This document shows, piece after piece, positions 5,899 through 50,234 of a stretch of DNA of 64,000 bases. Made by a program: the position numbers and the translations under genes. Source of the DNA: a virus; IMG/VR virus record IMGVR_UViG_3300032287_003559, positions 1-64,000 of that record. The stretch is one strand, 5' to 3'. Below the pieces are notes generated by a model. It did not search any database. It was not told the DNA's origin and worked only from the letters and a program-made list of their open reading frames with translations. Every line of letters begins with the position of its first letter. Position 1 is the first letter of the stretch.

Positions 5899-6663
5899 AT
5901 GGCAAAAGGATTTAGTGTTAAGGCATCAACACCAATTTCGAAAGAAGAGTGGGATTATGATGCAATCAAAGAACGAATGAAAGGCAAGTCTATTGTCTTT
6001 TGTCTACCTGGAAGAGGTTGTTCTTTTATTTTTCTAAAAGCATTTGTACAACTTTGTTTTGATCTTGTACAAAATGGAATGAGTATTCAAATTTCACAAG
6101 ACTACTCATCGATGGTTAATTTTGCACGTTGTAAGGTACTTGGTGCAAATGTTCTAAGGGGTCCGAATCAAATTCCTTGGGATGGAAAACTGCAGTATGA
6201 TTATCAACTTTGGATTGACTCGGATATTGTCTTTGACTCTCAAAAGTTCTGGCAACTTTGTGATCTAGCAATTTCAGCAGACGGCACAGAACGTGAGATT
6301 GTTGCTGGGTGGTATGCTACTGAAGATGGTCACACAACATCAGTAGCTCATTGGTTAGAGGAAGAAGACTTCCGTAAGAATGGTGGAGTGATGAATCATG
6401 AAACTGTTGAGTCAATTTCAAAGCGTAAGAAGCCATTTACTGTTGACTACACAGGATTTGGATGGGTCATGATCAAACATGGAGTTTTTGAACGTCTTGA
6501 GTATCCTTGGTTTGCTCCAAAGATGCAAGTCTTTGATTCTGGTAAAGTTCAAGATATGTGTGGTGAGGATGTTTCTTTCTGTCTTGATGCAAAAGAAGCA
6601 GGTATGGTAACCTGGTGTGATCCCAGGATTCGTGTTGGACATGAAAAAACTCGTATTATCTGA
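5899..6663 (+). CDS. Putative GT-A fold (family 2-like) glycosyltransferase
   Basis: DxD motif (LWIDSDIVF), GFGWVMIK, GEDVSFC and RVGHEK motifs typical of GT-A proteins. Confidence 0.7.
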   Translation: MAKGFSVKASTPISKEEWDYDAIKERMKGKSIVFCLPGRGCSFIFLKAFVQLCFDLVQNGMSIQISQDYSSMVNFARCKVLGANVLRGPNQIPWDGKLQYDYQLWIDSDIVFDSQKFWQLCDLAISADGTEREIVAGWYATEDGHTTSVAHWLEEEDFRKNGGVMNHETVESISKRKKPFTVDYTGFGWVMIKHGVFERLEYPWFAPKMQVFDSGKVQDMCGEDVSFCLDAKEAGMVTWCDPRIRVGHEKTRII

Positions 6664-6824
6664 TGGAAAAATCATACAATCTTTTATATAAAGGTCGTAA
6701 GATTTACACGAATCTCAGTGCAGAAGATTGTACTGAGATTCTCCAAGACTTCTCAGAGCGTTTTTTCTCGGGAGAAGACATTGACCCAAATGATTTAGAA
6801 ATGGAGGAACTTTTAAATGGCTAA
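6663..6824 (+). CDS. 53-aa hypothetical protein (paralog of 5650-5850)
   Basis: Translated manually: MEKSYNLLYKGRKIYTNLSAEDCTEILQDFSERFFSGEDIDPNDLEMEELLNG; TGATG coupling. Confidence 0.75.
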   Translation: MEKSYNLLYKGRKIYTNLSAEDCTEILQDFSERFFSGEDIDPNDLEMEELLNG

Positions 6825-6957
6825 AGGTGGAATGAACAAGACGTTGTTTGAACCAGGAGCACCTAAGAAAACTCGTCAAGGAAAATCAGCTCGTACTTTG
6901 TTAAGTGCAACCTCTCGTAATGGACGCAAAAAAAAGTATCGCGGGCAAGGAAAATAA
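6817..6957 (+). CDS. 46-aa basic peptide ending KKYRGQGK
   Basis: Translated manually; GGAGG SD; the KKYRGQG C-terminus is recalled from small proteins of T4-like phages. Confidence 0.75.
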   Translation: MAKGGMNKTLFEPGAPKKTRQGKSARTLLSATSRNGRKKKYRGQGK

Positions 6958-6963
6958 TTTAAC

Positions 6964-7179
6964 ATGCTTCAATTAAACCCACAGATCCCAGTTCTTACTC
7001 CAAAAGGTAAGGGTTGGGCATTTTTTTTAGTAGATCGATCTCAAGAGCACGATCTTGAATGGATTGTATTTTTAGATGATGGCGGATACTGTTGGACTTT
7101 TCGTAATTCTGATATTAGAATTCAAAAAAATGATACTTTTGGTCGAAGAAATATAGAAAGCTTTGATTTCAAGGGATAG
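6964..7179 (+). CDS. Hypothetical protein (MLQLNPQIPVLTPKGKG...)
   Basis: ORF track; operon context. Confidence 0.75.
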   Translation: MLQLNPQIPVLTPKGKGWAFFLVDRSQEHDLEWIVFLDDGGYCWTFRNSDIRIQKNDTFGRRNIESFDFKG

Positions 7180-7222
7180 CAACCCCTTTAAAAGTTCTGA
7201 TTTTTAAATCAGGAGTAAAAAA

Positions 7223-7414
7223 ATGCACAAGCAAACTGATAAGGAACAAAAAACAGAAGAGCAAAAAATGCTCAGGGAAATTTCAAATGATGATTTGATT
7301 CCAAAAAAACATGATTTTAGAATTCAAAAAGAAATTCATGAAAAAATTCGTAATGATGATGATTATGATGATTGGGAATACGGAACTGAACCAATTCCTC
7401 TAGCAGAATTTTGA
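7223..7414 (+). CDS. Hypothetical protein upstream of g25
   Basis: ORF track; AGGAG SD. Confidence 0.7.
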   Translation: MHKQTDKEQKTEEQKMLREISNDDLIPKKHDFRIQKEIHEKIRNDDDYDDWEYGTEPIPLAEF

Positions 7415-7427
7415 TCGATATTCTCTA

Positions 7428-7434
7428 ATAAATA
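7428..7434 (+). promoter_or_regulatory. Late (gp55-dependent) promoter for the baseplate operon
   Basis: ATAAATA about 20 nt upstream of g25; matches the T4 late -10 TATAAATA core. Confidence 0.7.
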
Positions 7435-7454
7435 AGGTAGAATTATAATAATAA

Positions 7455-7856
7455 ATGCCATTAGAGCGGGTAAGTCAAGGTTTCAAGGATATTAGCATGT
7501 CTTTTCAGATTAATCCTCTGAATAATGACTTAATTGCGCTTAAAAATGAAACTGCGATTGCTCGCTCTATTCGTAATATTGTTTTTACTCTTCCCGGAGA
7601 AAAGTTTTTTAATCAAAATTTTGGTTCTAGGGTAAGTAGATCTCTTTTTGAAAATGTAGATGAAATTTCTGCATCTATTATTAAAGATGAAATTGAGAAC
7701 TCAATCAATAATTATGAGCCAAGAGTTCAATTAATTGAGGTGCAAACAATTCCCGATTATGATAATGGTGCATTTGACGTAATCATTTCTTACAGAATTA
7801 TTGGCGCAGATGTTCCTGCTCAACAATTACAGTTTGTTCTGCAACCTACCAGGTAA
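7455..7856 (+). CDS. g25: Baseplate wedge subunit gp25
   Basis: AIARSIRNIVFTLPGEKFF..FGS and NYEPRV motifs of the GPW/gp25 family; precedes g6. Confidence 0.92.
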   Translation: MPLERVSQGFKDISMSFQINPLNNDLIALKNETAIARSIRNIVFTLPGEKFFNQNFGSRVSRSLFENVDEISASIIKDEIENSINNYEPRVQLIEVQTIPDYDNGAFDVIISYRIIGADVPAQQLQFVLQPTR

Positions 7857-7864
7857 TTAGGTAA

Positions 7865-9793
7865 ATGCCATTAGTAAATTTCACAAATCTGGATTTTGAC
7901 CAGATTAAAACAACTCTTAGAGATTACTTAAAATCCAATTCCAACTTTACTGATTACGACTTTGACGGGTCGAATCTTTCAACAATTCTTGACGTTCTTG
8001 CATATAATACATATATTACTTCATATAATGCTAACATGGTAGCAAATGAAGTATTCATTGATAGTGCTACACTTAGGGAAAATGTTGTCGCACTAGCAAG
8101 AAACATTGGATATATTCCAAGATCAAAGAAAGCAGCAACAGCAACGATTAGTTTCTTTGTTGATGCAACAAACATAACTCCATCTCCAACATCATTAACT
8201 CTCAAAAAAGGTCCTGTTGCTAGTACTAATGGTTCATTTGGAAATCAATCTTTTGTTTTTTCTATCTTAGATGATATTACTGTTCCTGTAGTTGATAATA
8301 TTGCATCTTTTACGGACATTAAAATTTACGAAGGAGTATTATTAAATACTGATTTTACCTATAGTTCAAGAAATCCAAATCAAAGATTTATTTTACCAAA
8401 CAGTGGAGTTGATACTGACTTGATTTCGGTATCAGTAAAAAATAATCCTTCACCAACAACAGCATCTATAAAATATAATATTCAAGATAGTTTATTTGAA
8501 ATAGATGGAGAGTCCGAAGTATATTTTTTACAGGAAATAGAAGACGAAAGGTATGAATTAATTTTTGGAGATGATGTATTTGGAAAGGCACTTCAAGAAG
8601 GATATTATATCAGCGCATCATATATTGTTACTAATGGAGATAGTGGTAATGGTATCAATCAATTCACCTTTTCTGGAAGATTAACCTACACAAGAAATTC
8701 TGTAGAATATGTCGTTTCTTCTGGAATTTCTTTACTAACTACAGGTCTATCGTCCAGTGGTGGAGAAAATATTGAATCTGTAGAATCTATCAAAAAATAT
8801 GCACCAAGGATTTATGCATCTCAAAATAGAGCATTGACTGCGAATGATTACGAGACATTAATTCCTGCAAAAATTTATCCAGAAACTGAATCAATTTCTG
8901 TTTTTGGTGGCGAAGAATTAATTCCACCACAATACGGAAAAGTTTTTATTAGTATTAAACCAAGATCTGGAGATTTTCTTCCAAACCTAATTAAAGAAAA
9001 TATTAAACTGAAACTTAAAAAATATGCAGTTGCTGGAATTGTTCCAGAAATTTTAGATTTGAAATATCTTTATATAGAAGTTGATTCAAAAATCTACTAT
9101 AATTCAAATCTTGCCCCTAGCCCTGCATATGTTTCTAGCATAATTCAATCAAATGCTAATAAGTACGCAGAATCATCTGAGTTAAATAAGTATGGTGCAA
9201 GGTTCAAATACAGTAAATTTTTAAAGATAATAGATGACAGTCATTCATCAGTTACCTCAAATATTACTAATATCCAAATGAGAAGAGACCTTAGGGTTGT
9301 TTTGAATACATTCTCAGAATACTCAATCGGATTTGGAAATCAATTCCATATTAATAGTATGGATGGATATAATATTAAATCCTCTGGTTTTGTTGTAAGT
9401 GGAATCAATGAAACTGTTTATCTATCTGATATCCCAGATACCAATAGAACAACAGGATCTATATTTTTATTTACTTTACCAAATTCTTCATCTAGAAGTT
9501 CAACAGTTGTTAAAAGAGGAGTTGGTAAAATTGACTATACCAAAGGTATTATAACATTAAATCCAATCAATATTATCTCAGCAAAAACTAAAGATTCTCA
9601 ATCAATTATTGAGATATCTGCGGTTCCGCAATCAAATGATATAATTGGATTGCAGGATCTGTATTTGCAACTAGATATTAATAACAGTATATTTGAAATG
9701 GTTATTGATGAAGTTTCATCAGGTCTTGATCCTTCAGCATCAAATTATATTGTAACTTCAAGCTATAGCAACGGGAATTTAGTAAGATCGTAA
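7865..9793 (+). CDS. g6: Baseplate wedge protein gp6
   Basis: LDFDQIK..L..YL, FTDYDFDGS.LS.ILDVLAYNT, QNRALTANDY motifs. Confidence 0.93.
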   Translation: MPLVNFTNLDFDQIKTTLRDYLKSNSNFTDYDFDGSNLSTILDVLAYNTYITSYNANMVANEVFIDSATLRENVVALARNIGYIPRSKKAATATISFFVDATNITPSPTSLTLKKGPVASTNGSFGNQSFVFSILDDITVPVVDNIASFTDIKIYEGVLLNTDFTYSSRNPNQRFILPNSGVDTDLISVSVKNNPSPTTASIKYNIQDSLFEIDGESEVYFLQEIEDERYELIFGDDVFGKALQEGYYISASYIVTNGDSGNGINQFTFSGRLTYTRNSVEYVVSSGISLLTTGLSSSGGENIESVESIKKYAPRIYASQNRALTANDYETLIPAKIYPETESISVFGGEELIPPQYGKVFISIKPRSGDFLPNLIKENIKLKLKKYAVAGIVPEILDLKYLYIEVDSKIYYNSNLAPSPAYVSSIIQSNANKYAESSELNKYGARFKYSKFLKIIDDSHSSVTSNITNIQMRRDLRVVLNTFSEYSIGFGNQFHINSMDGYNIKSSGFVVSGINETVYLSDIPDTNRTTGSIFLFTLPNSSSRSSTVVKRGVGKIDYTKGIITLNPINIISAKTKDSQSIIEISAVPQSNDIIGLQDLYLQLDINNSIFEMVIDEVSSGLDPSASNYIVTSSYSNGNLVRS

Positions 9794-9797
9794 TAAA

Positions 9798-22153: not shown

Positions 22154-23704
22154 ATGGCTGCAATTATAACCGATCAAATTAGAATATTGAATGCTAAAAA
22201 TTTTGTAGCGGGAGTTACTACCTCTAGAAATTCTTATTATTCTTTTATTGGTTTGCCAAATGCAACTGATATTCAGTCTGATTGGGATACCACCCCACCT
22301 TCACCAAAAGATAATTTTAACGAAGAAAATAATTACTGGGATACGATGATTGCATTGAAAAAAATCAATGCAAGTGATATAAGACAGGTCATACAAAAGA
22401 GAGTTTGGTCATCAGGTACAGTATATGATATGTACCGTCATGACTATAGTAGATCAAACACTGCGAAGGTCTCTGGATCGACAAATTTATACTCTTCATT
22501 CTTTTATGTTTTAAATAGTGACTATAGGGTTTATATCTGCTTACAGAACGGAACAAATCCAGAAAATCCAAATGGAAAACCTTCATTAGATGAGCCAACA
22601 TTTACAGATTTAGAGCCAAGATCTGCTGGTTCTAGTGGAGATGGTTATATATGGAAGTATCTGTATACTATTAAACCAAATGATATTGTAAAATTTGATT
22701 CTACAGATTTTATGCCAGTTCCTTCTGATTGGGATACTGCAGCAGAAAATTCTGCCGTAAGAGATAACGCAGTGGATGGATCTATTAAAATTGTAACAAT
22801 TACTAATAGAGGAGTTGGTGTAGGGACTGCAAATAGAACTTATACGAGGGTTCCAATTAGAGGTGACGGTACAGGAGCAGAGTGTACAATTGTAGTTAAC
22901 AATGATCAGCAAGTAGAATCTGTAGTTGTTTCAAATCAAGGATCTGGATATACCTATGGGAACGTTGATTTAGCTGCTGGAGGAGCTCCAACTGGAACAA
23001 CAACTCCAACTTTTGATGTTATCATTCCCCCTCAGGGAGGACATGGATATGATATCTATAGGGAACTTGGAGCATACAATGTTCTTCTTTACTCAAGAAT
23101 AGAAAATGATGTAGAAAACCCAGATTTTATTACAGGAAATCAAATTGCCAGGGTTGGTATTGTAAAAGATCCCAAATCTTTTGCATCTTCTCAAATATTA
23201 ACCTTAGATAAGGCAAGTGCCCTACCTGCACTTAGATTAACTGGAATAGGTTATAGCTCTGCCACATTTACTGCAGATTCTTACATATATCAGACAGTAT
23301 CGACGGGAACTACTGCTGTTGGAAGAGTTGTAAGTTATGATCAAACAACAGGGGTATTAAAGTACTGGCAAGATAGAACTTTTGCAGGGTTTACCACCGC
23401 AGGAATTGGGATAACAAATCCATCTTATGGATATGACCTCACTGAATTTACAAGCTCACCTTCAACAGGCGGTAGTGTAACTATAGTTGGTGGAAGTGTT
23501 AATTTATCAATAAGTACTTCATTTACCGGTCTATCAACAGTAATAAATAGTAGGACCTATTATCTTGGGCAATCATTTACAAATGGTATTGCTTCACCTG
23601 AGGTTAAAAAATACAGTGGTAGTATCATTTATGTAGATAACAGGCCATCAATTACAAGATCATCAAATCAAAAAGAAGATATTAAAGTCATTTTGCAGTT
23701 CTAA
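22154..23704 (+). CDS. g8: Baseplate wedge protein gp8
   Basis: MAAIITDQIRILNA, YRVYICLQN, DGYIWKYLYTI, C-terminal QKEDIKVILQF. Confidence 0.9.
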   Translation: MAAIITDQIRILNAKNFVAGVTTSRNSYYSFIGLPNATDIQSDWDTTPPSPKDNFNEENNYWDTMIALKKINASDIRQVIQKRVWSSGTVYDMYRHDYSRSNTAKVSGSTNLYSSFFYVLNSDYRVYICLQNGTNPENPNGKPSLDEPTFTDLEPRSAGSSGDGYIWKYLYTIKPNDIVKFDSTDFMPVPSDWDTAAENSAVRDNAVDGSIKIVTITNRGVGVGTANRTYTRVPIRGDGTGAECTIVVNNDQQVESVVVSNQGSGYTYGNVDLAAGGAPTGTTTPTFDVIIPPQGGHGYDIYRELGAYNVLLYSRIENDVENPDFITGNQIARVGIVKDPKSFASSQILTLDKASALPALRLTGIGYSSATFTADSYIYQTVSTGTTAVGRVVSYDQTTGVLKYWQDRTFAGFTTAGIGITNPSYGYDLTEFTSSPSTGGSVTIVGGSVNLSISTSFTGLSTVINSRTYYLGQSFTNGIASPEVKKYSGSIIYVDNRPSITRSSNQKEDIKVILQF

Positions 23705-31956: not shown

Positions 31957-32802
31957 ATGGCTCAACCATCTACTAGACAAGAATTAATTGATTATTGCAA
32001 AAGAAAACTGGGAGCACCAGTCTTGGAAATTAATGTAGCTGATGAGCAAATTGAAGATTTAGTTGATGATGCTATACAGTTTTTTCAAGAGCGTCATTTT
32101 GATGGCGTATATCCAACATTTTTCAAATATCAATTTACTCAAGATGATGTTGATAGAGGTAGAGCAAGGGGAGCAAATTCTAGCGTAGGAATTGTAACTA
32201 CTAATGTTACTGCAAATGTTGCAGGAATAACAACTACTTTTAAATATGAGGAAAATAGCAATTATTTGCAAGTTCCTCCAGGAGTCATAGGTGTAAATAA
32301 AATATTCCAATATGATGGATCTAACACTATTACACATAACATGTTCAGTGTTAAGTATCAGTTATTCTTGAATGATATTTATTATTGGGGAACTACTGAG
32401 CTTTTGTCTTATGCAATGGTAAAAACATACTTAGAAGATTTGGATTTTCTACTCAACACGCAGAAGCAGATTCGTTTCAATAAAAGACAAGATAGACTTT
32501 ATCTTGATATTGATTGGGGAGCCGTAAATGTAGGAAGCTACGTTATAATTGATTGTTATTCGGTGTTGGATCCAAATGATTATAGTCGGGTTTGGAATGA
32601 TTCATTTATTAAACCATACTTAACATCATTGATAAAAAAACAATGGGGACAGAATATGATGAAATTTACTGGTGTTAAACTTCCAGGTGGCGTTGAACTT
32701 AATGGTCGTCAAATGTATGATGATGCCCAAAGAGAACTTGATATTTTAATGGAAAAAATGTCGAATACTTATGAACTTCCACCTCTAGACATGGTTGGTT
32801 AA
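31957..32802 (+). CDS. g13: Neck protein gp13
   Basis: LGAPVLEINV.DEQI.D, KKQWGQNM.KF.GV.LPGGV.LNG; late promoter CTAAATA at 31930. Confidence 0.93.
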   Translation: MAQPSTRQELIDYCKRKLGAPVLEINVADEQIEDLVDDAIQFFQERHFDGVYPTFFKYQFTQDDVDRGRARGANSSVGIVTTNVTANVAGITTTFKYEENSNYLQVPPGVIGVNKIFQYDGSNTITHNMFSVKYQLFLNDIYYWGTTELLSYAMVKTYLEDLDFLLNTQKQIRFNKRQDRLYLDIDWGAVNVGSYVIIDCYSVLDPNDYSRVWNDSFIKPYLTSLIKKQWGQNMMKFTGVKLPGGVELNGRQMYDDAQRELDILMEKMSNTYELPPLDMVG

Positions 32803-32806: not shown

Positions 32807-34222
32807 ATGCTTAATCCATTTTTTCTTCAAGGTTCTGAATCAGAGAGAAATCTTATTCAAGATTTGGTCAATGAACAATTGAGAATGTATGGAATTGAAG
32901 TTTATTATTTGCCAAGAAAGTATATTACACAAAAAACTGTTATAAAAGAAGTTATAGAATCTTCGTTTGAAGATGCTTATCCAATAGAAGCTTATCTAGT
33001 AAGTTATGAGGGATATGGAGATAATCCAACTATTCTTTCAAAATTTGGAATTCAAGCACTTAATGAATTAACTTTAACCATATCAAGAGAGAGATTTGAA
33101 ACATATATTTCTCCTCTTATGAAAAATGAACAAAATATTCGATTATCTACTAGACCGAAAGAAGGAGATTTAATTTATTTTCCTCTTGGAGATCGTTTGT
33201 TTGAAATAAAATATGTCGAACATGAACAACCATTCTATCAAATTAATGGAAATACTAGTTATGATTTACGATGCGAATTATTCAGATATGAAGACGAAGT
33301 AATTGATACCGGAATATCTGAGATTGATAATTATATTGGTGGAACTGGTACAGGCGATGTAGATTATGAAACTAATGTTTACGCATCGATTCAAACATTA
33401 ACTCTTGTTGGGACTGCATCGACTGCATCTGCAATAACTACATTGGTTAACAATGGTATAAGATTCTTTACTGTTACTAATAGGGGTGGTGGATACTCTT
33501 ATCCACCAAGAGTTGCAATTTCTTCTGCACCAACGGGCGGTATGACTGGTGTAGGATCAGCAACAATGATTGGTGGTATTGTTGTTTGCGACAGGAATGT
33601 TAATCCCAATTTAAAATCAGTTCAATCTGTGGAAGTTATAAACCCAGGATATGGATACACTATTGCACCTAAAGTTGCATTTTTTGGTGATGGTGTTGGA
33701 GCGGCGGCGACAGCAACAATTGGTAGTGGAATCGTAGGAGTAATAACGGTTACAAACGGAGGATCTGGATATACATCTCCACCGCCAATCACATTTGTGG
33801 GGATTTCGACTGTTTCTGCTGCTGCCACAGCAGTAGTAAGCTCCGCCGGAACTATTACGCAAATAAGAATAACGAATGCTGGTCTTGGATATTCACAGGC
33901 ACCAACAATTATAATAGGAAATCCTTCAACAACTTCCAGTGGAGATTATATTTTTAATGAAATAATAACAGGATCAATAAGCAACACTACAGCAAGAGTT
34001 AGATCGTGGAATTCTGTGACTAATAAACTTGAAATTTCAAATGTATCTGGAGAATTTGCAATTTCAGAATCTATTATTGGATCAGATTCTGGCGCTTCGC
34101 ATGTATTAAGAGTAGTTGATTCAACCCCAGTCAATGATGGATTTTCAGATAATAAAAATATAGAAACAGAAGCAGATTCAATCATAGATTTTAGTGAGAT
34201 AAATCCGTTCGGAATGCCGTAG
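32807..34222 (+). CDS. g14: Neck protein gp14 with C-terminal extension
   Basis: YYLPR, SKFG, RPKEGDLIYFP, LFEIKYVE; ends DFSEINPFG. Confidence 0.9.
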   Translation: MLNPFFLQGSESERNLIQDLVNEQLRMYGIEVYYLPRKYITQKTVIKEVIESSFEDAYPIEAYLVSYEGYGDNPTILSKFGIQALNELTLTISRERFETYISPLMKNEQNIRLSTRPKEGDLIYFPLGDRLFEIKYVEHEQPFYQINGNTSYDLRCELFRYEDEVIDTGISEIDNYIGGTGTGDVDYETNVYASIQTLTLVGTASTASAITTLVNNGIRFFTVTNRGGGYSYPPRVAISSAPTGGMTGVGSATMIGGIVVCDRNVNPNLKSVQSVEVINPGYGYTIAPKVAFFGDGVGAAATATIGSGIVGVITVTNGGSGYTSPPPITFVGISTVSAAATAVVSSAGTITQIRITNAGLGYSQAPTIIIGNPSTTSSGDYIFNEIITGSISNTTARVRSWNSVTNKLEISNVSGEFAISESIIGSDSGASHVLRVVDSTPVNDGFSDNKNIETEADSIIDFSEINPFGMP

Positions 34223-35272: not shown

Positions 35273-35281
35273 AAAATTAAC

Positions 35282-39412: not shown

Positions 39413-41611
39413 ATGGCGACTCCTCAATTATCTCCAGGCGTACTCGTCAGAGAGGTTGATCTAACAGTAGGAAGAGCTGATAATGTTTTAAATAACATTG
39501 GAGCAATTGCAGGTCCTTTCCCAATTGGACCCGTAGATTTTCCAATTGATATTGCAACCGAACAAGATTTAATCAATACTTTCGGCAAACCAATTTCATC
39601 AGACACACAATACGAATATTGGATGAGTGCATCCTCCTACCTTTCATATGGAGGGGTTCTAAAAGTTGTTAGAACTGATGGAGCAACTTTAAATAACGCC
39701 AATGCGGGTGTTGGTATTGGTACTACAGCTAGTGCTAAAATCAAAAATTATGATGATTACCTATCCAATTGGTCTGAAGCAACTAATTTCACTTATGCAG
39801 CAAAAAATCCAGGAACATGGGCAAACGGATTAAAAGTTTGCTTTATCGATAACTATGCTGACCAAACTATTGGTATTGCATCAACTAACCCAGGAAACCT
39901 AGGCGCTGCTATTGGACTTGGAGTTACTGCAACTCTTACAAACGTGGTCCTCTCAGGTGCAGGGTCAACATCGTTGTTTAATGGATATCTTAAAGGAATT
40001 ATTACTGGGGTTACTACAGATACTGTAGCAGGAAATAGTTCGATTGATGTTCATGTCATTTCTAGAGTTTCTTCTGCTGGAACAGAGACCTTCATCAATT
40101 ATGCTCAAGGAACTACTTCAGCATCATTCACAACTGCAAGTACAATTAGATTTATAAACACAACTGGAATTGCTACTGGAGCATCTGCAGCAACTGGAGT
40201 AACTCCATCATCAGTTGTTGACTGGTATGATCAACAAACTTTAGGTCTTACAAATAGCACAATTTTCTGGAAATCGATAGCACCAAAACCAACATCTAAT
40301 CAATATTCTATTGATAGATCTGGCGAAAACGATGCTATGCATATTGCCGTGGTTGATGACTTAGGAACAATCACAGGAAGCCAAGGAGCCTTAATTGAAA
40401 AGCACGTAGGCATTTCAAAGGCTCTTGATGCAGTGTCTTCGGTCAATTCCCCACAGAAAATATGGTATAAGCAGTATCTTGCAGATTTTTCAACACAAAT
40501 CTGGGCTGGGGTCAATCCATCATCTGGTGCGGATTCTTTCTGGGGAACTTCACCAAGAGCAATTGGATTCTCTACTTTCTTTACTCCATATACTACAGCA
40601 CAAGGTCTCTGGGGACAAAACGCACAAGGAATCAAATTCAGTGCAATTGGAAATAAAACTTATAACTTAAGTGGTGGAACCAACTACTCAGCTGCTGGCG
40701 GATATGCAGCCACTCTCGGAGATTTACAAAACTCATACAATCTTTTCTCAAATAAAGATAATATCCAAGTTGATTACTTGATCATGGGTCCTGGTTTGAC
40801 CAACAAATCAGATTCACAAGCAAAGGCAGGTTATCTAATATCTCTTGCTGATGGAAGAAAGGATTGTATGGCGGTTATTGGACCACATAGAGCGGATTTG
40901 ATTGGTGTTACAAACAATGTAACCCAAACAACTAACTTAATTAACTACTTTAGCCCCCTTTCCTCCTCATCATATGCAGTATTTGATAGTGGATATAAGT
41001 ACACTTATGATAGATTTAATAATAGATTCGTATATATTCCTTGCAATGCTGATGTTGCAGGTCTAATGTGCCGTACAAACATTGTTGCATATCCATGGTT
41101 CTCCCCTGCTGGACAGCAAAGAGGAGTTTTAAACAATGTTGTAAAACTTGCATATAATCCATCCAAAGCACAAAGAGATCAACTCTATCCATTAAGAATC
41201 AATTCGATTGTTACACAACCAGGAGTTGGGACACTTCTCTTTGGAGACAAAACTGCAATTGGTTATGCATCAGCTTTTGATCGTATTAATGTTCGCCGCC
41301 TGTTCCTTACGGTAGAGCAAGCGTTGCAAAAAGCAGCACAAGCTCAACTCTTTGAACTCAATGACGAACTAACAAGAGCAAACTTCAGAAACATTGTTGA
41401 ACCATACCTCCGTGATATTCAAGCAAAGAGAGGTCTTTATGGTTTCCTTGTTGTTTGCGATACTTCAAATAACACTCCAGATGTTATTGATAACAATGAA
41501 TTTAGAGCTGATATCTACCTGAAACCATCCAAGTCTATCAACTACGTCACTCTGACCTTTGTGGCCACCAGAACTGGTGTAAGTTTTGAAGAAGTTGCTG
41601 GTACAGTTTGA
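39413..41611 (+). CDS. g18: Tail sheath protein gp18
   Basis: LSPGVLVREVDLT, PWFSPAG..RG, FDRINVRRLF; ATAAATA at 39372. Confidence 0.97.
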   Translation: MATPQLSPGVLVREVDLTVGRADNVLNNIGAIAGPFPIGPVDFPIDIATEQDLINTFGKPISSDTQYEYWMSASSYLSYGGVLKVVRTDGATLNNANAGVGIGTTASAKIKNYDDYLSNWSEATNFTYAAKNPGTWANGLKVCFIDNYADQTIGIASTNPGNLGAAIGLGVTATLTNVVLSGAGSTSLFNGYLKGIITGVTTDTVAGNSSIDVHVISRVSSAGTETFINYAQGTTSASFTTASTIRFINTTGIATGASAATGVTPSSVVDWYDQQTLGLTNSTIFWKSIAPKPTSNQYSIDRSGENDAMHIAVVDDLGTITGSQGALIEKHVGISKALDAVSSVNSPQKIWYKQYLADFSTQIWAGVNPSSGADSFWGTSPRAIGFSTFFTPYTTAQGLWGQNAQGIKFSAIGNKTYNLSGGTNYSAAGGYAATLGDLQNSYNLFSNKDNIQVDYLIMGPGLTNKSDSQAKAGYLISLADGRKDCMAVIGPHRADLIGVTNNVTQTTNLINYFSPLSSSSYAVFDSGYKYTYDRFNNRFVYIPCNADVAGLMCRTNIVAYPWFSPAGQQRGVLNNVVKLAYNPSKAQRDQLYPLRINSIVTQPGVGTLLFGDKTAIGYASAFDRINVRRLFLTVEQALQKAAQAQLFELNDELTRANFRNIVEPYLRDIQAKRGLYGFLVVCDTSNNTPDVIDNNEFRADIYLKPSKSINYVTLTFVATRTGVSFEEVAGTV

Positions 41612-41645: not shown

Positions 41646-42212
41646 ATGGCACATTCTATTCAGGATTTTAAATCAGCACTTGTTGGGGGCGGTGCCCGCC
41701 CCAATCTATTCCAAGTTGAAATTCCAGCACCACCAGCAGGAGTAAATTTAACTTCGAATTTCCCAATTCTTTGCAAAACTGCCGCACTGCCTGCATCAAA
41801 CATTGCTTCAATTGATATTCCTTTTAGAGGGAGAATCTTTAAGGTTGCAGGTGATCGTACATTTGATACTTGGACAATTACTGTTATCAATGATCAAGAC
41901 TTTACAATTAGAAAAGCATTTGAAACTTGGATGCAATCTATTGGACAGTATGGAGATGCTAGTGGTTTTACTGATCCATCCGATTATATGGTAGATGCAT
42001 TTGTTAAGCAGTTTAAGAGAGGTGCTTCCGCTACTGGAACTGGAGTTGCTACTGGAACCGGATTAGAAGTCGCTGCAACATATCAATTTTACAGCATTTT
42101 CCCAACCAATATTTCTGCAATTGATCTTTCATATGATACCTCAGATACAATTGAGGAATTTACTGTTGAATTCCAAGTTCAGTACTGGACACCTGCCGAA
42201 AATAAAGGCTAA
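41646..42212 (+). CDS. g19: Tail tube protein gp19
   Basis: GGARPNLF, AGDRTFDTWTITVIND, IEEFTVEFQVQYW. Confidence 0.95.
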   Translation: MAHSIQDFKSALVGGGARPNLFQVEIPAPPAGVNLTSNFPILCKTAALPASNIASIDIPFRGRIFKVAGDRTFDTWTITVINDQDFTIRKAFETWMQSIGQYGDASGFTDPSDYMVDAFVKQFKRGASATGTGVATGTGLEVAATYQFYSIFPTNISAIDLSYDTSDTIEEFTVEFQVQYWTPAENKG

Positions 42213-42248
42213 TAAATAGTCTAAAGATAAAGACTAAAAAAATAAATT

Positions 42249-43964: not shown

Positions 43965-43994
43965 ATATACACAGTTACAAATTAATGCATAAAA

Positions 43995-44183
43995 ATGGAT
44001 GATTTACTGGATATGATTCTCGCGGACGAATCTCCCTCACAAATTAGTGATCAAATTAAAGATTTACTTTTTGCAAAATCTGCAGAAAGAATAGATTCTT
44101 TGCGTCCTTCTGTAGCAAATTCTATGTTTGGTCAAGATGAACTAAGTAATGATGAAGGAGAATATGGAGCAGAAGAAAACTGA
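43995..44183 (+). CDS. Small acidic prohead core protein (gp67-position)
   Basis: Directly after g20 with TATAAATA at 43960; acidic helical sequence. Confidence 0.55.
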   Translation: MDDLLDMILADESPSQISDQIKDLLFAKSAERIDSLRPSVANSMFGQDELSNDEGEYGAEEN

Positions 44184-44195
44184 GAGTGATGAATA

Positions 44196-45071
44196 ATGGC
44201 AGGTCTGTCGGACTTTTTTAAACTTATTGAAGAAGAAAAAAAGAAACAGGATAAAGAACTATATTCTCTTCTTGGTGAAGAATTTTCCACGGATAAATTT
44301 ATTGATACTCTGATTTCATCTGCAAAAAAAGAGGTAAAAAAAGAAAAAATTATTGAAAAGAAAATAGAAAAAATATTTAATGATATCCTAATAGATGAAA
44401 AAGATTCTACAGAATCAAAAATAGTTGAAGAAAATATAGAAGAAATAATAGAAGAAGAACTTTTTGAAGAGACTGTTGAGGATCCTTTGATTGAAAAATC
44501 TTTGGGTCTTCTTTCAGAACCATCTAATATTAAACAACAAAACGATCCATTGACTCCAATAGATCAAAAATTTGCAACTCTTGAAGATTTACAGAATCAC
44601 TATAAGATTTTTATTTCTCGTATTCAACAACAACTTTCTACTCTTGGGGGAAGTGGTGAGACTCGTTTAGAATTTTTAGATGATGTTGATAGAAATTCAG
44701 TAAAGGTAAATAATAAATTTCTAAGATATAATTCAAATACTGGGAAATGGAAAGGTTCTGACGCTGGAGAAGGTCCATTTATATCTTCAACAACTTATGT
44801 AACTACATCATCTTATACAATTCTTGAAGGTGATTATTACATAGGAGTTAATTATGCCGGAGCGGTTACAATCACTCTTCCAAATGGAGTGATTCAAGGA
44901 ACAACATACATTGTAAAGGATGAACTTGGGGAAGCTTCCAAGGGAACAAATAGATATATAACAATACTTCCATCTGGATCTGATTTGATTGATGGTAGAG
45001 ATAGAGCAATTCTTGCTTTTGATTATGGTTCACTTACTTTTGTTTATAGAAACGGTTGGAGGGTAGTTTAA
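44196..45071 (+). CDS. Hypothetical protein: acidic N-terminus plus fibre-type C-terminal beta domain
   Basis: E/K-rich N half; C-terminal YYIGVN...VTITLP...YIVKDE...IDG...GSLTFVY..GW pattern recalled from phage fibre proteins. Confidence 0.6.
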   Translation: MAGLSDFFKLIEEEKKKQDKELYSLLGEEFSTDKFIDTLISSAKKEVKKEKIIEKKIEKIFNDILIDEKDSTESKIVEENIEEIIEEELFEETVEDPLIEKSLGLLSEPSNIKQQNDPLTPIDQKFATLEDLQNHYKIFISRIQQQLSTLGGSGETRLEFLDDVDRNSVKVNNKFLRYNSNTGKWKGSDAGEGPFISSTTYVTTSSYTILEGDYYIGVNYAGAVTITLPNGVIQGTTYIVKDELGEASKGTNRYITILPSGSDLIDGRDRAILAFDYGSLTFVYRNGWRVV

Positions 45072-46291
45072 TGTCTCATTTATATCAACCAAGTTTAGAC
45101 CAACACGATGCATTTGGTCGTTTAAGAATTTCAAGTCCACTTACACTTTTTGATTCATCGCATAGATATAGGGATAATAATTTATGGACTAGTTTAGTTG
45201 TAGGAACTGGTTCTACTGTTGGATTTGTAACGACACAAGGATTAGTGCAGATTGGTATTGGAACTACTGCAGGATGTTCTGTTATCAGAGAAACAACAAA
45301 GGTATTTTCATATCAACCAGGAAAATCTCTGGAAGTTATGAATACTTTTGTAATGAATGCACCAAAACAAAATCTAATGCAAAGAGTTGGATATTTTGGA
45401 GCAGATAATGGAATATATTTTGAGGTTGATGGAAATACTGTAAATTTTGTTGAAAGAAGCATTGTATCTGGAATGATGTCTGAAAGCAGAGTTCCACAAT
45501 CACAATGGTTATATGATAAAATGGATGGAACTGGTCCTTCTGGACTTGTACTTGATACATCTCAAGCACAAATCTTCTGGATGGATATTGAGTGGTTAGG
45601 AGTCGGAACAGTAAGAGTTGGTTTCGTAATTGATGGACAATTCATTCACTGCCATTCGTTTCACCACGCAAATAGAATTCAATCAACATATATTACAACT
45701 GGTTCATTGCCTCTAAGATATGAGATTGCAAATACTGGAATTACAACAAGTTCAAGCACACTTAAACAGATTTGTTCCACGGTAATTTCAGAAGGTGGTT
45801 ATGAACTTCGCGGATTGCAACAGGCAGTAGGAACTGCAGTTACATCACCAGTCAATTTACCATTACCTGCCGGAACTTATTATCCAATAATATCACTTAG
45901 ACTTAGGACAACACCAAATCGTCTAGATGCAATTGTAATTTTGACGGCAATTTCAATGTTGGGTATCACAAATAATGCAAATTATAATTGGCAGGTGAGA
46001 GCAAGTTGCATTACGTCTGGGGGAACTTGGAATATTGCAGGTATAGATTCTGCTGTAGAATATAAAATTGACGGAGGAACAGTTAGTGGTGGTAGAGTTT
46101 TAGCAAGTGGATATTTCAATTCTTCACAGCAAGCGTCAGTTCCAGTAGATATTCTTAAGGAAGCATTATTTTCTTTCCAATTGGAAAGAGATGGTTTAAC
46201 TTCAACTCCATATGAGACGGCACTAGTTTGCTCTGCAAGTGTGAATGCCGACATTCTTGCTTCTATGGATTGGGAAGAAATTAGTAGGTAA
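45071..46291 (+). CDS. Hypothetical beta-rich probable virion protein
   Basis: ORF track 45056..; ATG at 45071 (TAATG coupling); DAFGRLR, YQPGKS, EWLGVGTVRVGF motifs. Confidence 0.65.
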   Translation: MSHLYQPSLDQHDAFGRLRISSPLTLFDSSHRYRDNNLWTSLVVGTGSTVGFVTTQGLVQIGIGTTAGCSVIRETTKVFSYQPGKSLEVMNTFVMNAPKQNLMQRVGYFGADNGIYFEVDGNTVNFVERSIVSGMMSESRVPQSQWLYDKMDGTGPSGLVLDTSQAQIFWMDIEWLGVGTVRVGFVIDGQFIHCHSFHHANRIQSTYITTGSLPLRYEIANTGITTSSSTLKQICSTVISEGGYELRGLQQAVGTAVTSPVNLPLPAGTYYPIISLRLRTTPNRLDAIVILTAISMLGITNNANYNWQVRASCITSGGTWNIAGIDSAVEYKIDGGTVSGGRVLASGYFNSSQQASVPVDILKEALFSFQLERDGLTSTPYETALVCSASVNADILASMDWEEISR

Positions 46292-46333
46292 TCTCATATT
46301 TTATAAATAACTAATAAATGTATTATAAGAATA

Positions 46334-46888
46334 ATGACGCATAGACCAGTTGGGGCTGGGTCCTCATTCACATTTACTGCAGGAACTGCATCAACTTCAT
46401 CTACATTTTCAGTTCAATCTGATACTTTAAGAGTTGTTGCTGTTGGTAACGCTGCACATGTTGCAATTGCAGCAAGTCCAACTGCATCAACAACTGATTA
46501 TTATATTCCCTCCGGAACTGCAATAACTCTTGCATTGACTAAAGCATCTAATAGAGTTGTCGGTGTTACTACAGGAACATCAACGATTCTTACCTTTGCA
46601 GAGGGAACTCAGGCACCTTTCGGTGTTGGTGATTATATTAGTTTAACTGCAAATGCACAGTCATATTATAACTTTACTCACCAACAAGTTACGTCAGTAG
46701 ATACTACTTCTGGCATAAATGGATTTTTCCAAGGGAGAATTGTTGTAAGTTATGATTCAAGTGGAATTGTAACTTCCTTCTCTTCTCCAAATGCAACAGC
46801 AGTTATTTCTCAAAGAATTTCTGCTTATGGCGCAACTGGAGATGGATCACTTTATTATCAGCAAGTACAAATTACCAACCAAGCATGA
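46334..46888 (+). CDS. Hypothetical S/T-rich protein upstream of g21, probably virion-associated
   Basis: ORF track; TATAAATA at 46302. Confidence 0.7.
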   Translation: MTHRPVGAGSSFTFTAGTASTSSTFSVQSDTLRVVAVGNAAHVAIAASPTASTTDYYIPSGTAITLALTKASNRVVGVTTGTSTILTFAEGTQAPFGVGDYISLTANAQSYYNFTHQQVTSVDTTSGINGFFQGRIVVSYDSSGIVTSFSSPNATAVISQRISAYGATGDGSLYYQQVQITNQA

Positions 46889-47538
46889 TGAAACTTATCA
46901 CAGAAGAAATAGAATCAGTAGAAGTTATTTCTGAAAATGTAAACGGTAAAAAGACTCTGTATATTCAAGGACCTTTCCTTCAGACTGAGCAACCAAATAG
47001 AAATAACAGAATATATCGTCTTCCAGTAATGGAAAGAGAAGTTAAAAGATATACTGAACAGTATGTAAATAAGGGACGTGCTCTTGGCGAACTTGGTCAT
47101 CCAGATGGACCAACTGTAAATCTTGATAGAGTTTCTCATAAGATCGTTTCACTTCATCGTGAAGGAAATAACTTCATTGGAAAAGCGCAGATTCTTTCCA
47201 CTCCTATGGGAAAGATTGCAGAATCTCTCCTTAAGGAAGGCGTAACTTTGGGAGTTTCTTCTCGTGGAATTGGATCTCTAAAACCAACTCGTGAAGGATA
47301 TAACGAAGTAGGCGAAGATTTTATGCTTGCAACTGCTGCTGATATTGTCGCTGATCCTTCTGCACCTGATGCTTTTGTTCAAGGAATTATGGAAGGAAAG
47401 GAGTGGGTATGGGATGGTGGGGTTTTGAGGGAGAAAGAAGCAGAAAACACTAGACGCAGAATAAACACTCTTGTTGATGAAGGAATTCTTGAAGAGTATA
47501 AAATATCATTATTCAATGAGTTTTTAAATTCATTGTAA
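46885..47538 (+). CDS. g21: Prohead protease gp21
   Basis: ALGELGHP, VSHKI, GVSSRG.GS, DIVADPSAPDAFV. Confidence 0.96.
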   Translation: MMKLITEEIESVEVISENVNGKKTLYIQGPFLQTEQPNRNNRIYRLPVMEREVKRYTEQYVNKGRALGELGHPDGPTVNLDRVSHKIVSLHREGNNFIGKAQILSTPMGKIAESLLKEGVTLGVSSRGIGSLKPTREGYNEVGEDFMLATAADIVADPSAPDAFVQGIMEGKEWVWDGGVLREKEAENTRRRINTLVDEGILEEYKISLFNEFLNSL

Positions 47539-47593
47539 TTTATTAATTTATAAATAAATATAGATTAAATTAGAGGTTAATCGGAGAGTTCAA

Positions 47594-48748
47594 ATGTCTC
47601 GTGGAGATTTACAAGAAATGGAAGTAGGCACAAAGCAATCCAGAACCGCCGTAAATGCAAATGCAAAGGCGGGAGCACCAATGCCAAAACTAGATGCAGG
47701 TGCTGTTGCAGGTCAAACTGGAGATTGGGAAGATCTTGGTGGACCAGATCCTTCAAACTACCGCCCAGATGATGATTCAGCAAAACTTAAAACCCCTGGA
47801 GCAACTCTTAAGCAAGTAAGAGATGTTGTCAATAAGGGCGCTAAGGCTGCAGAACCGATGAAGGGTTTGAATAAAGAAGATACTGAATATGATGAAGATG
47901 AAGAACTCTTAGAAGAAATTGACGAAGAAGACGAAGATCTAGTAGAAGCAAAGAAAGAGAAGAAGGAAAAGGAAGAAGAGGATGAAGAAGATGAGGATGA
48001 AGAAGAAGATGAAGATATGAAGGAAGAGTATAGCATTGAAGAAGATGTCAATGCTCTCTTAGGAGGCGAAGAACTTTCTGAGCAATTCAAGGAGAAAGCA
48101 AAGACAATTTTTGAAGCTGCTTTAAAATCAAAAGTTACTGAAATTAAAGAAGCACTTGAAGTTCAGTATGAAGAGAGACTTTCTGAAGAAATTGAGGAAG
48201 TTAAAGAAGAACTTAAGAATCGTGTAGATTCATATCTAGAATATGTTTCTGACGAGTGGTTTGCTGAGAATACTCTCGTTATCGAGAAAGGACTCAAAAC
48301 CGAAATGACTGAATCATTCCTAACTGGAATGAAGCAACTTTTTGAAGAGCATTATGTAACAATCCCTGAAGATAAATATGATGTACTTGAGAGTATGGTA
48401 GAAAAACTTGATGAAATGGAGACAAAACTCAACGAGCAAATTGAGAAGAATATCTCCCTTAACAAGCGTCTCGCAGAGTCGGTTGCTGATGGGATTTTAG
48501 ATCAAGTTTCTGAGGGACTAGCTCTTACTCAGAAAGACAAGCTCGCTTCACTTGCCGAAAGTGTTGAGTTTGAAAGTGAAGAAGAATATCGTGAGAAACT
48601 GGAGACCTTGAAGGAGGCATACTTCTCAAGATCTGCATCTCCATCCGCTAAAACTGAAACCCTTTCAGAGGGAGTAAGCGTTGCACATGAGTCCGTCTCA
48701 AATTCAATGGCTACTTATCTGAAAACTCTTTCAGCATTCAGCAAATAA
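47594..48748 (+). CDS. g22: Prohead core scaffold protein gp22
   Basis: Acidic tract, FKEKAKTIFEAA, VDSYLEYV..EW; TATAAATA at 47549; lies between g21 and g23. Confidence 0.93.
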   Translation: MSRGDLQEMEVGTKQSRTAVNANAKAGAPMPKLDAGAVAGQTGDWEDLGGPDPSNYRPDDDSAKLKTPGATLKQVRDVVNKGAKAAEPMKGLNKEDTEYDEDEELLEEIDEEDEDLVEAKKEKKEKEEEDEEDEDEEEDEDMKEEYSIEEDVNALLGGEELSEQFKEKAKTIFEAALKSKVTEIKEALEVQYEERLSEEIEEVKEELKNRVDSYLEYVSDEWFAENTLVIEKGLKTEMTESFLTGMKQLFEEHYVTIPEDKYDVLESMVEKLDEMETKLNEQIEKNISLNKRLAESVADGILDQVSEGLALTQKDKLASLAESVEFESEEEYREKLETLKEAYFSRSASPSAKTETLSEGVSVAHESVSNSMATYLKTLSAFSK

Positions 48749-48803
48749 TTGAATTTAATATAATTCAAACCCCAAACAAACACACTAGAAAAGGTAAACG
48801 CAA

Positions 48804-50234
48804 ATGTTCCAATCAGAGCATCTGCAGGAAAAGTGGGCACCACTCCTCAACTATGAGGGTCTTGATCCAATCAAAGATTCCCATCGTAGAGCAGTAACCG
48901 CTGTCCTGTTAGAAAACCAAGAAAAATTCCTTCGTGAGCAATCAGCTTTCGAAATGTCAGGTTCATTCCTGTCAGAAGCACCAACCAACTCAGCTAATGC
49001 TGTTGGTGGTTCTGGTGGTTTCGGTGGCGGTGCAACTGCTGCTGGTCCTACCGCAGGTTTCGACCCTGTTCTAATCTCACTAATCCGCCGTTCAATGCCT
49101 AACCTGGTCGCTTATGACCTGGCTGGCGTTCAACCAATGAGTGGTCCTACTGGACTCATCTTCGCAATGCGTTCACGTTATACCAACCAGAGTGGTACTG
49201 AAGCATTCTACAACGAAGTAGACTCTTCATTCTCTGGTCAAGACGCTGGATTCAACATTGCTGGTTTTGGTAGCACAAACGCTGGTCTTGGTACAACTGG
49301 ACCACAAAGAGGCACCAACCCATCAGTTCTTAACCCAGTTGGTGGTGGTGGCGATCAAGTAGCATACAACGTTGGACAAGGCATGCCAACGGGTGATGCA
49401 GAACAACTTGACGGTACTACTGGTGACGCATTCAACCAGATGGCTTTCTCGATCGAGAAAGTCACCGTTACTGCAAAGTCACGCGCTCTGAAAGCTGAGT
49501 ACTCACTTGAGCTCGCTCAAGACCTCAAGGCAATCCACGGTCTGAATGCTGAAGCGGAATTAGCAAACATTCTCTCAACTGAGATTCTTGCTGAAATCAA
49601 CCGCGAAGTCATCAGAACCATCTATAAGGTTGCTGAACAGGGTGCTGTACAGAACGTTGCAACCCCAGGTATCTTCGACCTCGACGTTGACTCCAACGGT
49701 CGTTGGTCAGTTGAGAAGTTCAAGGGTCTTCTGTTCCAAATTGAGAGAGATGCTAACGCTATCGCTCAGAGAACTCGTCGTGGAAAGGGTAACATCATCA
49801 TGTGCTCTGCTGACGTTGCTTCAGCACTGACCATGGCTGGTGTTCTCGACTACACCCCTGCACTCAACGCTAACCTGAATGTCGATGATACCGGCAACAC
49901 CTTTGCTGGTACTCTGATGGGCAAGTTCCGCGTCTATATTGACCCATATTCGGCTAACTTGACCTCAGCTAACGCTGCACCAGGTAACCAGTATTATGTC
50001 GTAGGTTATAAGGGTTCTTCCCCTTATGATGCAGGTCTCTTCTACTGCCCATATGTTCCTCTCCAAATGGTACGTGCCGTTGGTGAGAACAGCTTCCAGC
50101 CCAAGATTGGCTTTAAGACCCGTTATGGTCTTGTTTCCAACCCATTCGCTGAAGGCACCACTCAGGGTCTTGGTAGACTACAGGTTGACTCCAACCGTTA
50201 CTACAGACGTGTTGCAGTTAAAAACCTCATGTGA
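48804..50234 (+). CDS. g23: Major capsid protein gp23
   Basis: LISLIRRSMPNL, GVQPM.GPTGLIFAMR, KSRALKAEY..ELAQDLKAIHG, FQPKIGFKTRYG. Confidence 0.99.
   Translation: MFQSEHLQEKWAPLLNYEGLDPIKDSHRRAVTAVLLENQEKFLREQSAFEMSGSFLSEAPTNSANAVGGSGGFGGGATAAGPTAGFDPVLISLIRRSMPNLVAYDLAGVQPMSGPTGLIFAMRSRYTNQSGTEAFYNEVDSSFSGQDAGFNIAGFGSTNAGLGTTGPQRGTNPSVLNPVGGGGDQVAYNVGQGMPTGDAEQLDGTTGDAFNQMAFSIEKVTVTAKSRALKAEYSLELAQDLKAIHGLNAEAELANILSTEILAEINREVIRTIYKVAEQGAVQNVATPGIFDLDVDSNGRWSVEKFKGLLFQIERDANAIAQRTRRGKGNIIMCSADVASALTMAGVLDYTPALNANLNVDDTGNTFAGTLMGKFRVYIDPYSANLTSANAAPGNQYYVVGYKGSSPYDAGLFYCPYVPLQMVRAVGENSFQPKIGFKTRYGLVSNPFAEGTTQGLGRLQVDSNRYYRRVAVKNLM

Follow-up and report, generated by a model that had tools for sequence, protein, structure and literature searches.

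The main finding of this work is that the short motif G-[IVLF]-[GAST]-[ST]-T, which recurs in the structural proteins of a T4-like cyanomyovirus (IMG/VR record IMGVR_UViG_3300032287_003559), occurs there far more often than composition predicts, and that it probably represents a structural strand-to-loop idiom of one cyanophage clade, inherited and multiplied by module shuffling, which stands beside a glycosyltransferase gene that marks the same clade. The source genome comprises 175,135 bp, and the window analysed here is its first 64 kb; among named phages S-SM2 is the closest, sharing 67.5% identity in gp15 and about 80% in the portal protein. An earlier note, made from the letters of this DNA, had called attention to the motif and to the glycosyltransferase gene, and had proposed that the motif is an acceptor sequon, or a docking tag, acquired convergently in exposed loops of non-homologous virion proteins. 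All the examples that it quoted from structural proteins were found where it had placed them, including the tandem pair AGFGSTNAGLGTT in the major capsid protein gp23 (Table 1).

Enrichment was measured in the 21 structural open reading frames (ORFs) of the window, which add up to 13,806 amino acids (aa). In this set the pentamer G[IVLF][GAST][ST]T was observed 26 times, against 1.8 expected after global shuffling and 2.5 after local shuffling over 30 residues, and 0 of 1000 shuffles reached 26. When the tetramer G[IVLF][ST]T was counted together with the pentamer, 53 copies were observed against 6.5-8.4 in the shuffles, and the excess persisted when the gp7-like protein was left out (19 vs 4.9) and when both this protein and VrlC were left out (15 vs 3.2), so that the enrichment over composition-shuffled controls anticipated by the earlier note was obtained with global and local shuffles alike. 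Among single proteins, tested with 2000 local shuffles at P < 0.05, uncorrected for 21 proteins, an excess was found in the gp7-like protein (34 vs 3.4), gp18 (4 vs 0.5), ORF 45056 (3 vs 0.24), gp8 (3 vs 0.44) and gp23 (2 vs 0.15); the VrlC-like protein alone showed no significant enrichment (4 observed vs 1.7 expected, P ~0.1).

In 69% of the copies a V or I stands at position -1, so that the real unit is the hexamer [VI]G[IVLF][GA][ST]T, hereafter the strict hexamer, of which the whole-genome proteome holds 35 copies in 13 ORFs. Comparison of the 720 orders of the hexamer residue classes over this proteome placed the forward order as the commonest (35 copies), with a median of 0 and a single copy for the reverse order. 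Structurally matched ORFs hold 33 of the 35 hexamers (the gp7-like protein, the VrlC-like protein with DUF4815, gp18, and members of PHROG tail-fibre, baseplate and virion-structural families), and the other two lie in ORFs 78398 and 152491, of unknown function. The earlier note had not seen the motif in replication enzymes, an absence that holds genome-wide; inside the window it is uninformative, because no more than 0.1-0.6 copies would be expected there. Its description of the motif as virion-wide is overstated, because 29 of the 35 hexamers are confined to the gp7-like protein, VrlC and proteins outside the window with PHROG tail-fibre or virion-structural matches.

Synonymous codons vary inside the motif; the constraint thus acts on the protein and not on the DNA. 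At position -1 the codon GTT was used for 27 of 29 valines, against 53% genome-wide, and the other positions follow genome usage. All 33 matches to the hexamer written as a DNA pattern lie on the coding strand of this genome, and few opposite-strand matches were seen across the sampled records. The possibility that the motif is general to T4-like structural proteins was also considered and rejected, since the structural modules of S-PM2, S-RIM8 and T2 have no excess; in S-PM2 and S-RIM8 the expected motif counts of the structural proteins are similar to those of the window.

Many of the motif copies lie in modules that several proteins have in common. All-against-all protein comparison revealed modules common to the gp7-like protein and gp14, to the gp7-like protein and gp8, and to gp14 and VrlC, as well as a network of six fibre ORFs. 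For instance, residues 308-373 of gp14 align with residues 3851-3922 of the gp7-like protein (BLASTP E = 2.6e-6), and ORF 45056 (also called 45071) has a module in common with another ORF of this genome, 170698-173700 (E = 1e-21). In these alignments the motif is often present in both partners, and the proteins can be called non-homologous only in part, because many of the motif-bearing segments are homologous shared modules. Within the gp7-like family, 113 homologues with at least 55% identity have 5-21 pentamers each; over the 34 sites of this phage the motif class is kept by 51% of the homologues on average, and motif residues are conserved slightly above their flanks (0.68 vs 0.60). The family has 61 distinct motif sites, of which 11 occur in half or more of the sequences while 25 are rare, and 119 control residue orders gave a median of 27 sites with 20 rare and a maximum of 43 rare. 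Because sites are conserved and rare ones are not in surplus, the excess in the gp7-like protein has been inherited and not repeatedly gained, and recurrent convergent gain among its homologues is not supported; together with the homology of many motif segments, this speaks against the convergent acquisition that had been proposed. In gp8, the motif sites are kept or nearly kept in S-SM2 and are absent at the aligned positions of S-RIM8 and ACG-2014f, and the full-length VrlC orthologue of S-RIM8 lacks all four pentamers of the VrlC-like protein.

The placement of the copies in folded proteins was approached with an AlphaFold model of the C-terminal 1121 residues (2990-4110) of the gp7-like protein, built as a monomer from 50 aligned homologues, on which the 10 motif copies outside low-confidence stretches were mapped by hand. 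In six of them, the motif is predicted to form a loop that starts at the end of a strand and runs into the next strand, and in four of these six the V at position -1 is itself placed in a strand or bridge; the remaining four copies are modelled within strands, beside a tight turn. The position that follows [VI]G[IVLF][GA]x is T in 45 cases, S in 4 and A in 3, a bias that suits a beta-branched structural position. A fold search with the same model gave only weak multi-domain matches (TM-score, the template modelling score, < 0.1), and no fold was assigned. All four copies of gp18 fall in residues 101-418, a stretch without alignment to residues 97-339 of T4 gp18, and the tandem pair of gp23 sits between two blocks that can be aligned with T4 gp23; in view of the T4 structures, we take both stretches to be regions of the sheath and capsid subunits that lie on the outside and vary. 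The loops that the earlier note had expected are partly seen, since most well-modelled copies lie in post-strand loops and the stretches of gp18 and gp23 do not align with T4, but a location in loops fits both a structural role and a glycosylation site and does not tell the two apart.

Fibre proteins encoded outside the window carry a longer repeated form, G-N/S-V-G-I-G-T-T-N/T-P-x-x-x-L-x-V. The fibre ORF 117679-119964 matches the solved structures of Bd3182 (8OJN chain C, E = 6.3e-5) and Bd2133 (8OND, E = 4.4e-3), and both of these Bdellovibrio alignments are centred on the segment G-R-V-G-V-G-T-T-A-P-T-S-A-L-H-V. In the Bdellovibrio fibre structures such segments were named capping loops; they lie at the edges of trimeric beta-helices, with the consensus V-G-G/N-pi-X-X-P-X-X-X-L, which is also present in MyRF (Caulton et al. 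2024, PMC10769870). The sequence V-G-hydrophobic-G-T-T-x-P-x-x-x-L is the same in Bd3182 and Bd2133 (8OJN/8ONC/8OND), and in S74-type phage fibres and MyRF, and the loop closes the edge of a beta-structure after a strand (PMC10769870). Structures solved for proteins of other organisms thus explain the long form in purely structural terms. This form accounts for 12 of the 35 hexamers (P no more than three residues after T-T), whereas most copies in the gp7-like protein, VrlC, gp18 and gp23 correspond to the first six residues only. Unlike the capping loops of trimeric beta-helices, the copies in the window lie in a baseplate giant, in the outer domains of the sheath and in a capsid loop, where the local structure is a predicted one. 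We infer that the short form does locally in these proteins what the solved loops do in the structure of the fibres. A literature search for the motif strings returned no paper. As a separate observation, the regions 117679-119964 and 152491-174490 of the genome hold at least seven fibre-like ORFs made of shuffled modules with repeated capping loops, and a 1945-aa ORF at 156004 matches phrog_529 (tail fibre) along its whole length.

Based on these data, we hypothesize that the hydrophobic residue would end a beta-strand and that G-hydrophobic-G/A-S/T-T would make a short link to the next strand, the long form G-N/S-V-G-I-G-T-T-x-P-x-x-x-L-x-V being the capping loop that would close trimeric beta-helix fibres at their edges. 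In one major clade of T4-like cyanophages, the fibres, the gp7-like giant and the add-on domains of gp14 and other virion proteins would be built from related beta-rich modules, which may have borne the loop from the start and would then have been duplicated and shuffled. The GT-A enzyme encoded upstream of the baseplate genes is a marker of the same clade, and its acceptor need not be the motif.

The distribution of both traits was compared in 27 complete Kyanoviridae genomes, in which the hexamer was counted as a DNA pattern over whole records and the same records were searched with the enzyme; a reversed-pattern control gave 0-2 matches per record. Enzyme-bearing genomes were the window phage (33 hexamers), DSL-LC03 (20), S-SM2 and P-SSM2 (18 each), Sf-FS3 (16), S-CAM9 and S-T4 (15 each), S-SSM7 and P-TIM68 (14 each), S-SKS1 (12), B23 (10), S-CAM7 (4) and ACG-2014f (2). 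Among the enzyme-less genomes, no hexamer was found in S-PM2, S-RIM8, ACG-2014d, S-RIM2, Syn9, P-HM1, P-RSM4, P-SSM7, S-CRM01 and S-BM3, and one each in ACG-2014j, P-SSM4, S-RSM4 and Syn19. The enzyme is thus present in 13/13 complete genomes with at least two hexamers, and 14/14 genomes that lack it have 0-1. In portal trees, all the enzyme-bearing genomes fall on one side of a single branch (support 96/97 in the careful tree and 100 by the Shimodaira-Hasegawa-like approximate likelihood ratio test, SH-aLRT, in a 28-genome tree, where that side comprises the 13 enzyme-bearing genomes and one truncated record). Since the split coincides with one branch, one gain or loss would explain both traits and the sample amounts to one observation. 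The relation between motif density and the enzyme suggested by the earlier note holds insofar as counts track the enzyme over the 27 genomes, but it reflects a single event and is not a correlation; no joint gain or loss of the two in independent lineages was seen, only this shared branch within Kyanoviridae.

No motif-rich genome is without the enzyme, but the enzyme can be present with few or no motif copies. In ACG-2014f the enzyme is intact, and the full-length gp7-like orthologue, of 4228 aa, has 0 hexamers and 2 pentamers, the sites of the window phage being replaced there; this orthologue keeps a tetramer enrichment (13 tetramers; pentamers and tetramers together 15 vs 2.3 expected). 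Its sister S-CAM7 has four hexamers. Outside Kyanoviridae, S-TIM5 has an enzyme with 54% identity and 1 hexamer match, and the 735-kb uncultured phage LR756501 one with 39% identity and 2 matches. No complete genome with motif-rich proteins and no enzyme was found among the 27. S-PRM1 (no enzyme, 5 hexamers) was examined as such a case and rejected: its record NC_055761.1, labelled complete (144,311 bp), starts at a gp14-like gene and lacks gp6 and a baseplate block of about 30 kb that in the near-identical S-CAM9 holds the glycosyltransferase, gp25, gp6, gp7-like, gp8 and VrlC genes, and it is probably an incomplete assembly. In the 10 relatives for which both coordinates were available, the enzyme gene lies 6-13 kb upstream of the main motif cluster, on the same strand; in S-SM2 and ACG-2014f, the gp7-like gene corresponds to this cluster or to the aligned ORF. 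Four distant representatives of the enzyme family lie on contigs of 1.3-6.7 kb without the motif, too little sequence to weigh either way.

The glycosyltransferase gene of the window lies 0.8 kb upstream of gp25, as the earlier note stated, and the late promoter that it proposed is consistent with a late-type GATAAATA read upstream of the gene. Fold and conserved residues, including a DSD motif, identify its product as a genuine GT-A enzyme. The AlphaFold model has a predicted local distance difference test (pLDDT) value of 94.3 and a predicted TM-score (pTM) of 0.89, and Foldseek returned 162 PDB matches at E <= 0.001, the best 40 being all GT-A or GT-A-like (among them 2C0N, 9DYT, 6FXM, 9EVK and 3ZF8). 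The protein itself has no Pfam match at E <= 0.01; it matches phrog_1574 (function unknown, 3e-113) and phrog_34859 (glycosyltransferase, 1.6e-8), and its family counts 1890 cluster representatives at E <= 0.001. Among 89 diverse relatives (27-86% identity), 25 match PF00535 (GT2) and 13 PF13506, and the models matched include GT21 and Anp1; R77, D107, G186 and D224 are invariant over these relatives, and S108, D109, E223 and H248 are at least 90% conserved. The top Foldseek match is A197 of Sulfolobus turreted icosahedral virus (STIV; E = 9.5e-9), followed by mimivirus R699, LH3, COLGALT1, Mnn9, GlfT2 and GalNAc-transferases. Like the window enzyme, A197 (2C0N) is a small, single-domain, virus-encoded GT-A protein with a DxD motif, and the major coat protein B345 is its supposed, though unproven, glycosylation target (PMC10551542). 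Nevertheless, the two proteins are only 17% identical, with a TM-score of 0.45-0.59, and the fold is common to enzymes that act on widely differing acceptors, among them LH3, COLGALT1, Mnn9, GlfT2 and the GalNAc-transferases, so that the GT-A fold gives nothing firm on the acceptor.

In mycobacteriophages (Che8 and relatives), phage-encoded glycosyltransferases and capsid-protein glycans that form a shield have been reported (Freeman et al. 2023, as cited in PMC11256854 and PMC12801897). Sugars were reportedly measured in that system, whereas that of the window is a putative one and has an enzyme of a different family. Closer to the present case, ORF96 of S-SCSM2R, gp008 of S-SCSM1 and gp109 of P-SSM2 were listed as glycosyltransferases of "cell wall synthesis and modification" (PMC12801897, Table 1). 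The S-SCSM2R record has a match 74% identical to the window enzyme, annotated as glycosyltransferase, whose 753 nucleotides (nt) agree in size with the 251 aa of ORF96, and P-SSM2 and S-SCSM1 also match; from these sequence matches, we take the three to be the same gene as that of the window. Host-surface or DNA modification is assumed in that work without experiment, and the motif is not mentioned there (PMC12801897). Two homologues of the enzyme look from their sequences as if they carry insertions: that of B23 (MN695335.1 120757-121638) gives a two-piece match within one 297-aa frame, with an HNH homing endonuclease annotated underneath, and that of P-TIM68 (KM359505.1 58617-59513) is about 45 aa longer than the protein of the window. 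An unrelated uncultured phage (Logan SRR17165181, SRR17165171) has a 29%-identical family member 1.2 kb downstream of a motif-less Phage_capsid_3 gene, followed by pyruvyl-transferase-like, radical SAM, methyltransferase and GT1 genes.

The capsid protein was compared in 25 genomes, comprising the window phage, 12 enzyme-bearing relatives and 12 enzyme-less phages. A loop G-[LFVI]-G-T-T was found in the window phage and in 10 of the 12 enzyme-bearing relatives, including ACG-2014f and S-CAM7, and in 0 of the 12 enzyme-less phages, which have GSANN, PLGDG, GAGVGG, G-ATN and others in its place; the exceptions on the enzyme-bearing side are P-TIM68 (GIGTN) and Sf-FS3 (GFGTG). Over aa 135-200 of the window protein, the enzyme side reads G-[LFVI]-G-T-T-x-Q-x-G-S/T-N-P and the other side mostly D-A-E-G-T/A-N-P, and the neighbouring N-P-x-x-L-N is common to both clades. 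The loop is a trait of one clade, yet it marks out one abundant, probably exposed candidate site.

This site is central to the alternative closest to the earlier note, namely that the motif is an O-glycosylation acceptor for the phage's own late GT-A enzyme on exposed virion loops, with the G-[LFVI]-G-T-T core of gp23 as the primary target and the fibre and baseplate copies as further ones. We consider this unlikely. The enrichment, the copies in loops and phage-variable regions, and a true GT-A enzyme with its DSD, ED and H residues, whose best structural match is a putative coat glycosylation enzyme, are consistent with it, as are the same-strand position of the enzyme gene upstream of the motif cluster in 10 relatives, the late-type GATAAATA before it, and the survival of the gp23 site in ACG-2014f and S-CAM7 despite the loss of nearly all other copies; phage-encoded virion glycosylation itself exists in mycobacteriophages (cited in PMC11256854). 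The proposal survives because motif-rich genomes are never without the enzyme and because of the gp23 loop. The co-distribution, however, is one bipartition of the portal tree (SH-aLRT 100), that is, a single event; the enzyme occurs without motif enrichment in S-TIM5, the 735-kb phage, ACG-2014f and S-CAM7; the long form is structural in Bdellovibrio fibres and MyRF (PMC10769870); flanking hydrophobic residues and glycines, with T favoured over S, fit a structural turn; and there is no excess of newly gained sites. In the literature searched, glycosylated cyanomyovirus virions are unreported, and neither data on sugars of such virions nor a cryo-electron microscopy structure of a clade member was found. 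Virion proteomes have reportedly been published for S-PM2 and Syn9, and since both belong to the enzyme-less clade, they cannot answer this question. We know of no defined hexamer sequon from glycosylated mycobacteriophages. Glycosylation is not mentioned by Sullivan et al. (2010).

More doubtful still is a docking or assembly tag for a clade-specific chaperone, cement or decoration protein, acting in folding or on the particle. The clade-specific distribution, the protein-level constraint and the loop copies in several virion proteins, including capsid and sheath, would suit such a tag, but the analysis yielded no candidate partner, the motif is short and in part hydrophobic, most of its copies are spread over proteins that differ greatly in location and copy number, and fibre structure alone explains the long form. 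Practically negligible is the idea that the motif is a by-product of G/S/T-rich composition or a translated DNA-level element, for example one that serves recombination or regulation. Although G, S and T abound in the proteins and GTT is somewhat over-used at position -1, the 10- to 25-fold excess over local and global shuffles and the rank of the forward order among the 720, with one reverse copy, exclude a composition artefact, and S-PM2 and S-RIM8 reach a similar expectation without excess; synonymous codon variation, with genome usage at positions other than -1, excludes a DNA-level element, and the 33/33 coding-strand matches in this genome agree with this. The structural strand-to-loop idiom is the reading that we prefer, and several results weigh against it. 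Most short copies in the window lack the P-x-x-x-L tail of the solved loops, and the model of the gp7-like C-terminal part has a moderate pLDDT of 65, with many domains at 70-89. The second site of gp18 is found in the clade only (TIGIASTNP or RIGIGTTAP vs IVTFAATPT in S-PM2), and the gp23 loop follows the enzyme in the same manner. Finally, a structural idiom offers no obvious explanation for a sister clade that is nearly motif-free (0-1 hexamers per genome in 14 genomes).

The features of the window are listed in Table 1, with the structural module in gene order.

Table 1. Glycosyltransferase gene, structural module and motif copies in the window (coordinates in nt; single numbers as given for the gene)
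Feature	Coordinates	Strand	Motif copies and remarks
Promoter-like TTGACA and late-type GATAAATA	5847-5852 and 5856-5863	+	Upstream of glycosyltransferase gene; read from sequence
Glycosyltransferase, predicted GT-A fold, 254 aa	5899..6663	+	D107-S108-D109, E223-D224, H248
gp25	7455
gp6	7865
gp7-like giant baseplate protein, 4110 aa	9798..22130	+	15 pentamers, 19 tetramers, 13 strict hexamers; among the start positions of hexamers on the DNA are 11550, 12915, 14784, 15036, 18834, 18858, 18990, 21189, 21426, 21642, 21822
gp8 baseplate wedge protein	22154..23704	+	Three tetramers, aa 20, 412, 459
VrlC-like protein, DUF4815, 2482 aa	23711..31159	+	Four pentamers, aa 798, 1863, 2014, 2098
gp13 neck protein	31957..32802	+	VGIVTT and AGITTT near aa 78-94
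gp14 neck protein, C-terminal extension	32807..34222	+	VGIST at aa 332, within module common to gp7-like
gp15, gp16
Modular protein	35757
gp17
gp18 tail sheath	39413..41611	+	VGIGTT nt 39710-39727; IGIAST nt 39869-39886; GVTT aa 199; GFST aa 385
gp19, gp20
Accessory virion protein	44196
Accessory virion protein, virion structural protein phrog_1645	45056..46291	+	IGIGTT nt 45251-45268, GITT, GLTST
Accessory virion protein, DUF7243	46334..46888	+	One VGVTT, consistent with chance
gp21, gp22
gp23 major capsid protein	48804..50234	+	Tandem AGFGST-N-AGLGTT, nt 49260-49298 (aa 153-165)

Some further features of the window were observed. Residues 1252-1353 of the gp7-like protein constitute a YHYH domain (PF14240, E = 1e-21), and at about aa 840-1050 the same protein has repeats of a small unit, H-x-F-x-x-G-D/E...G-G-L-S-T...Y-Y-V...L, from which many four-residue G-L-S-T copies come. 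With 471 aa, gp14 has almost double the length of its T4 counterpart, and its extension module (N-P-G-S-G-Y-T-S-x-P) is common to the gp7-like protein and VrlC. Exact late-promoter motifs TATAAATA occur four times in the window, all on the + strand, just before gp15 (34223), at the end of gp20 (43960), before ORF 46334 (46302) and before gp22 (47549), a number below the 7.6 expected by chance.

If the structural reading is true, a six-residue signature would separate two deep clades of Kyanoviridae (2-33 vs 0-1 copies per genome) and would mark a different construction of fibre and baseplate, and the capping-loop motif described in 2024 would extend from bacterial fibres to cyanophage virions. 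If instead the motif were a sequon, then of the two major clades of marine T4-like cyanophages one would have sugar-coated particles, a glycan shield on very abundant ocean viruses, and for the first time a glycosylation site would be defined in a marine phage, namely in its major capsid protein gp23, with a bearing on host recognition, grazing, stickiness and particle stability.

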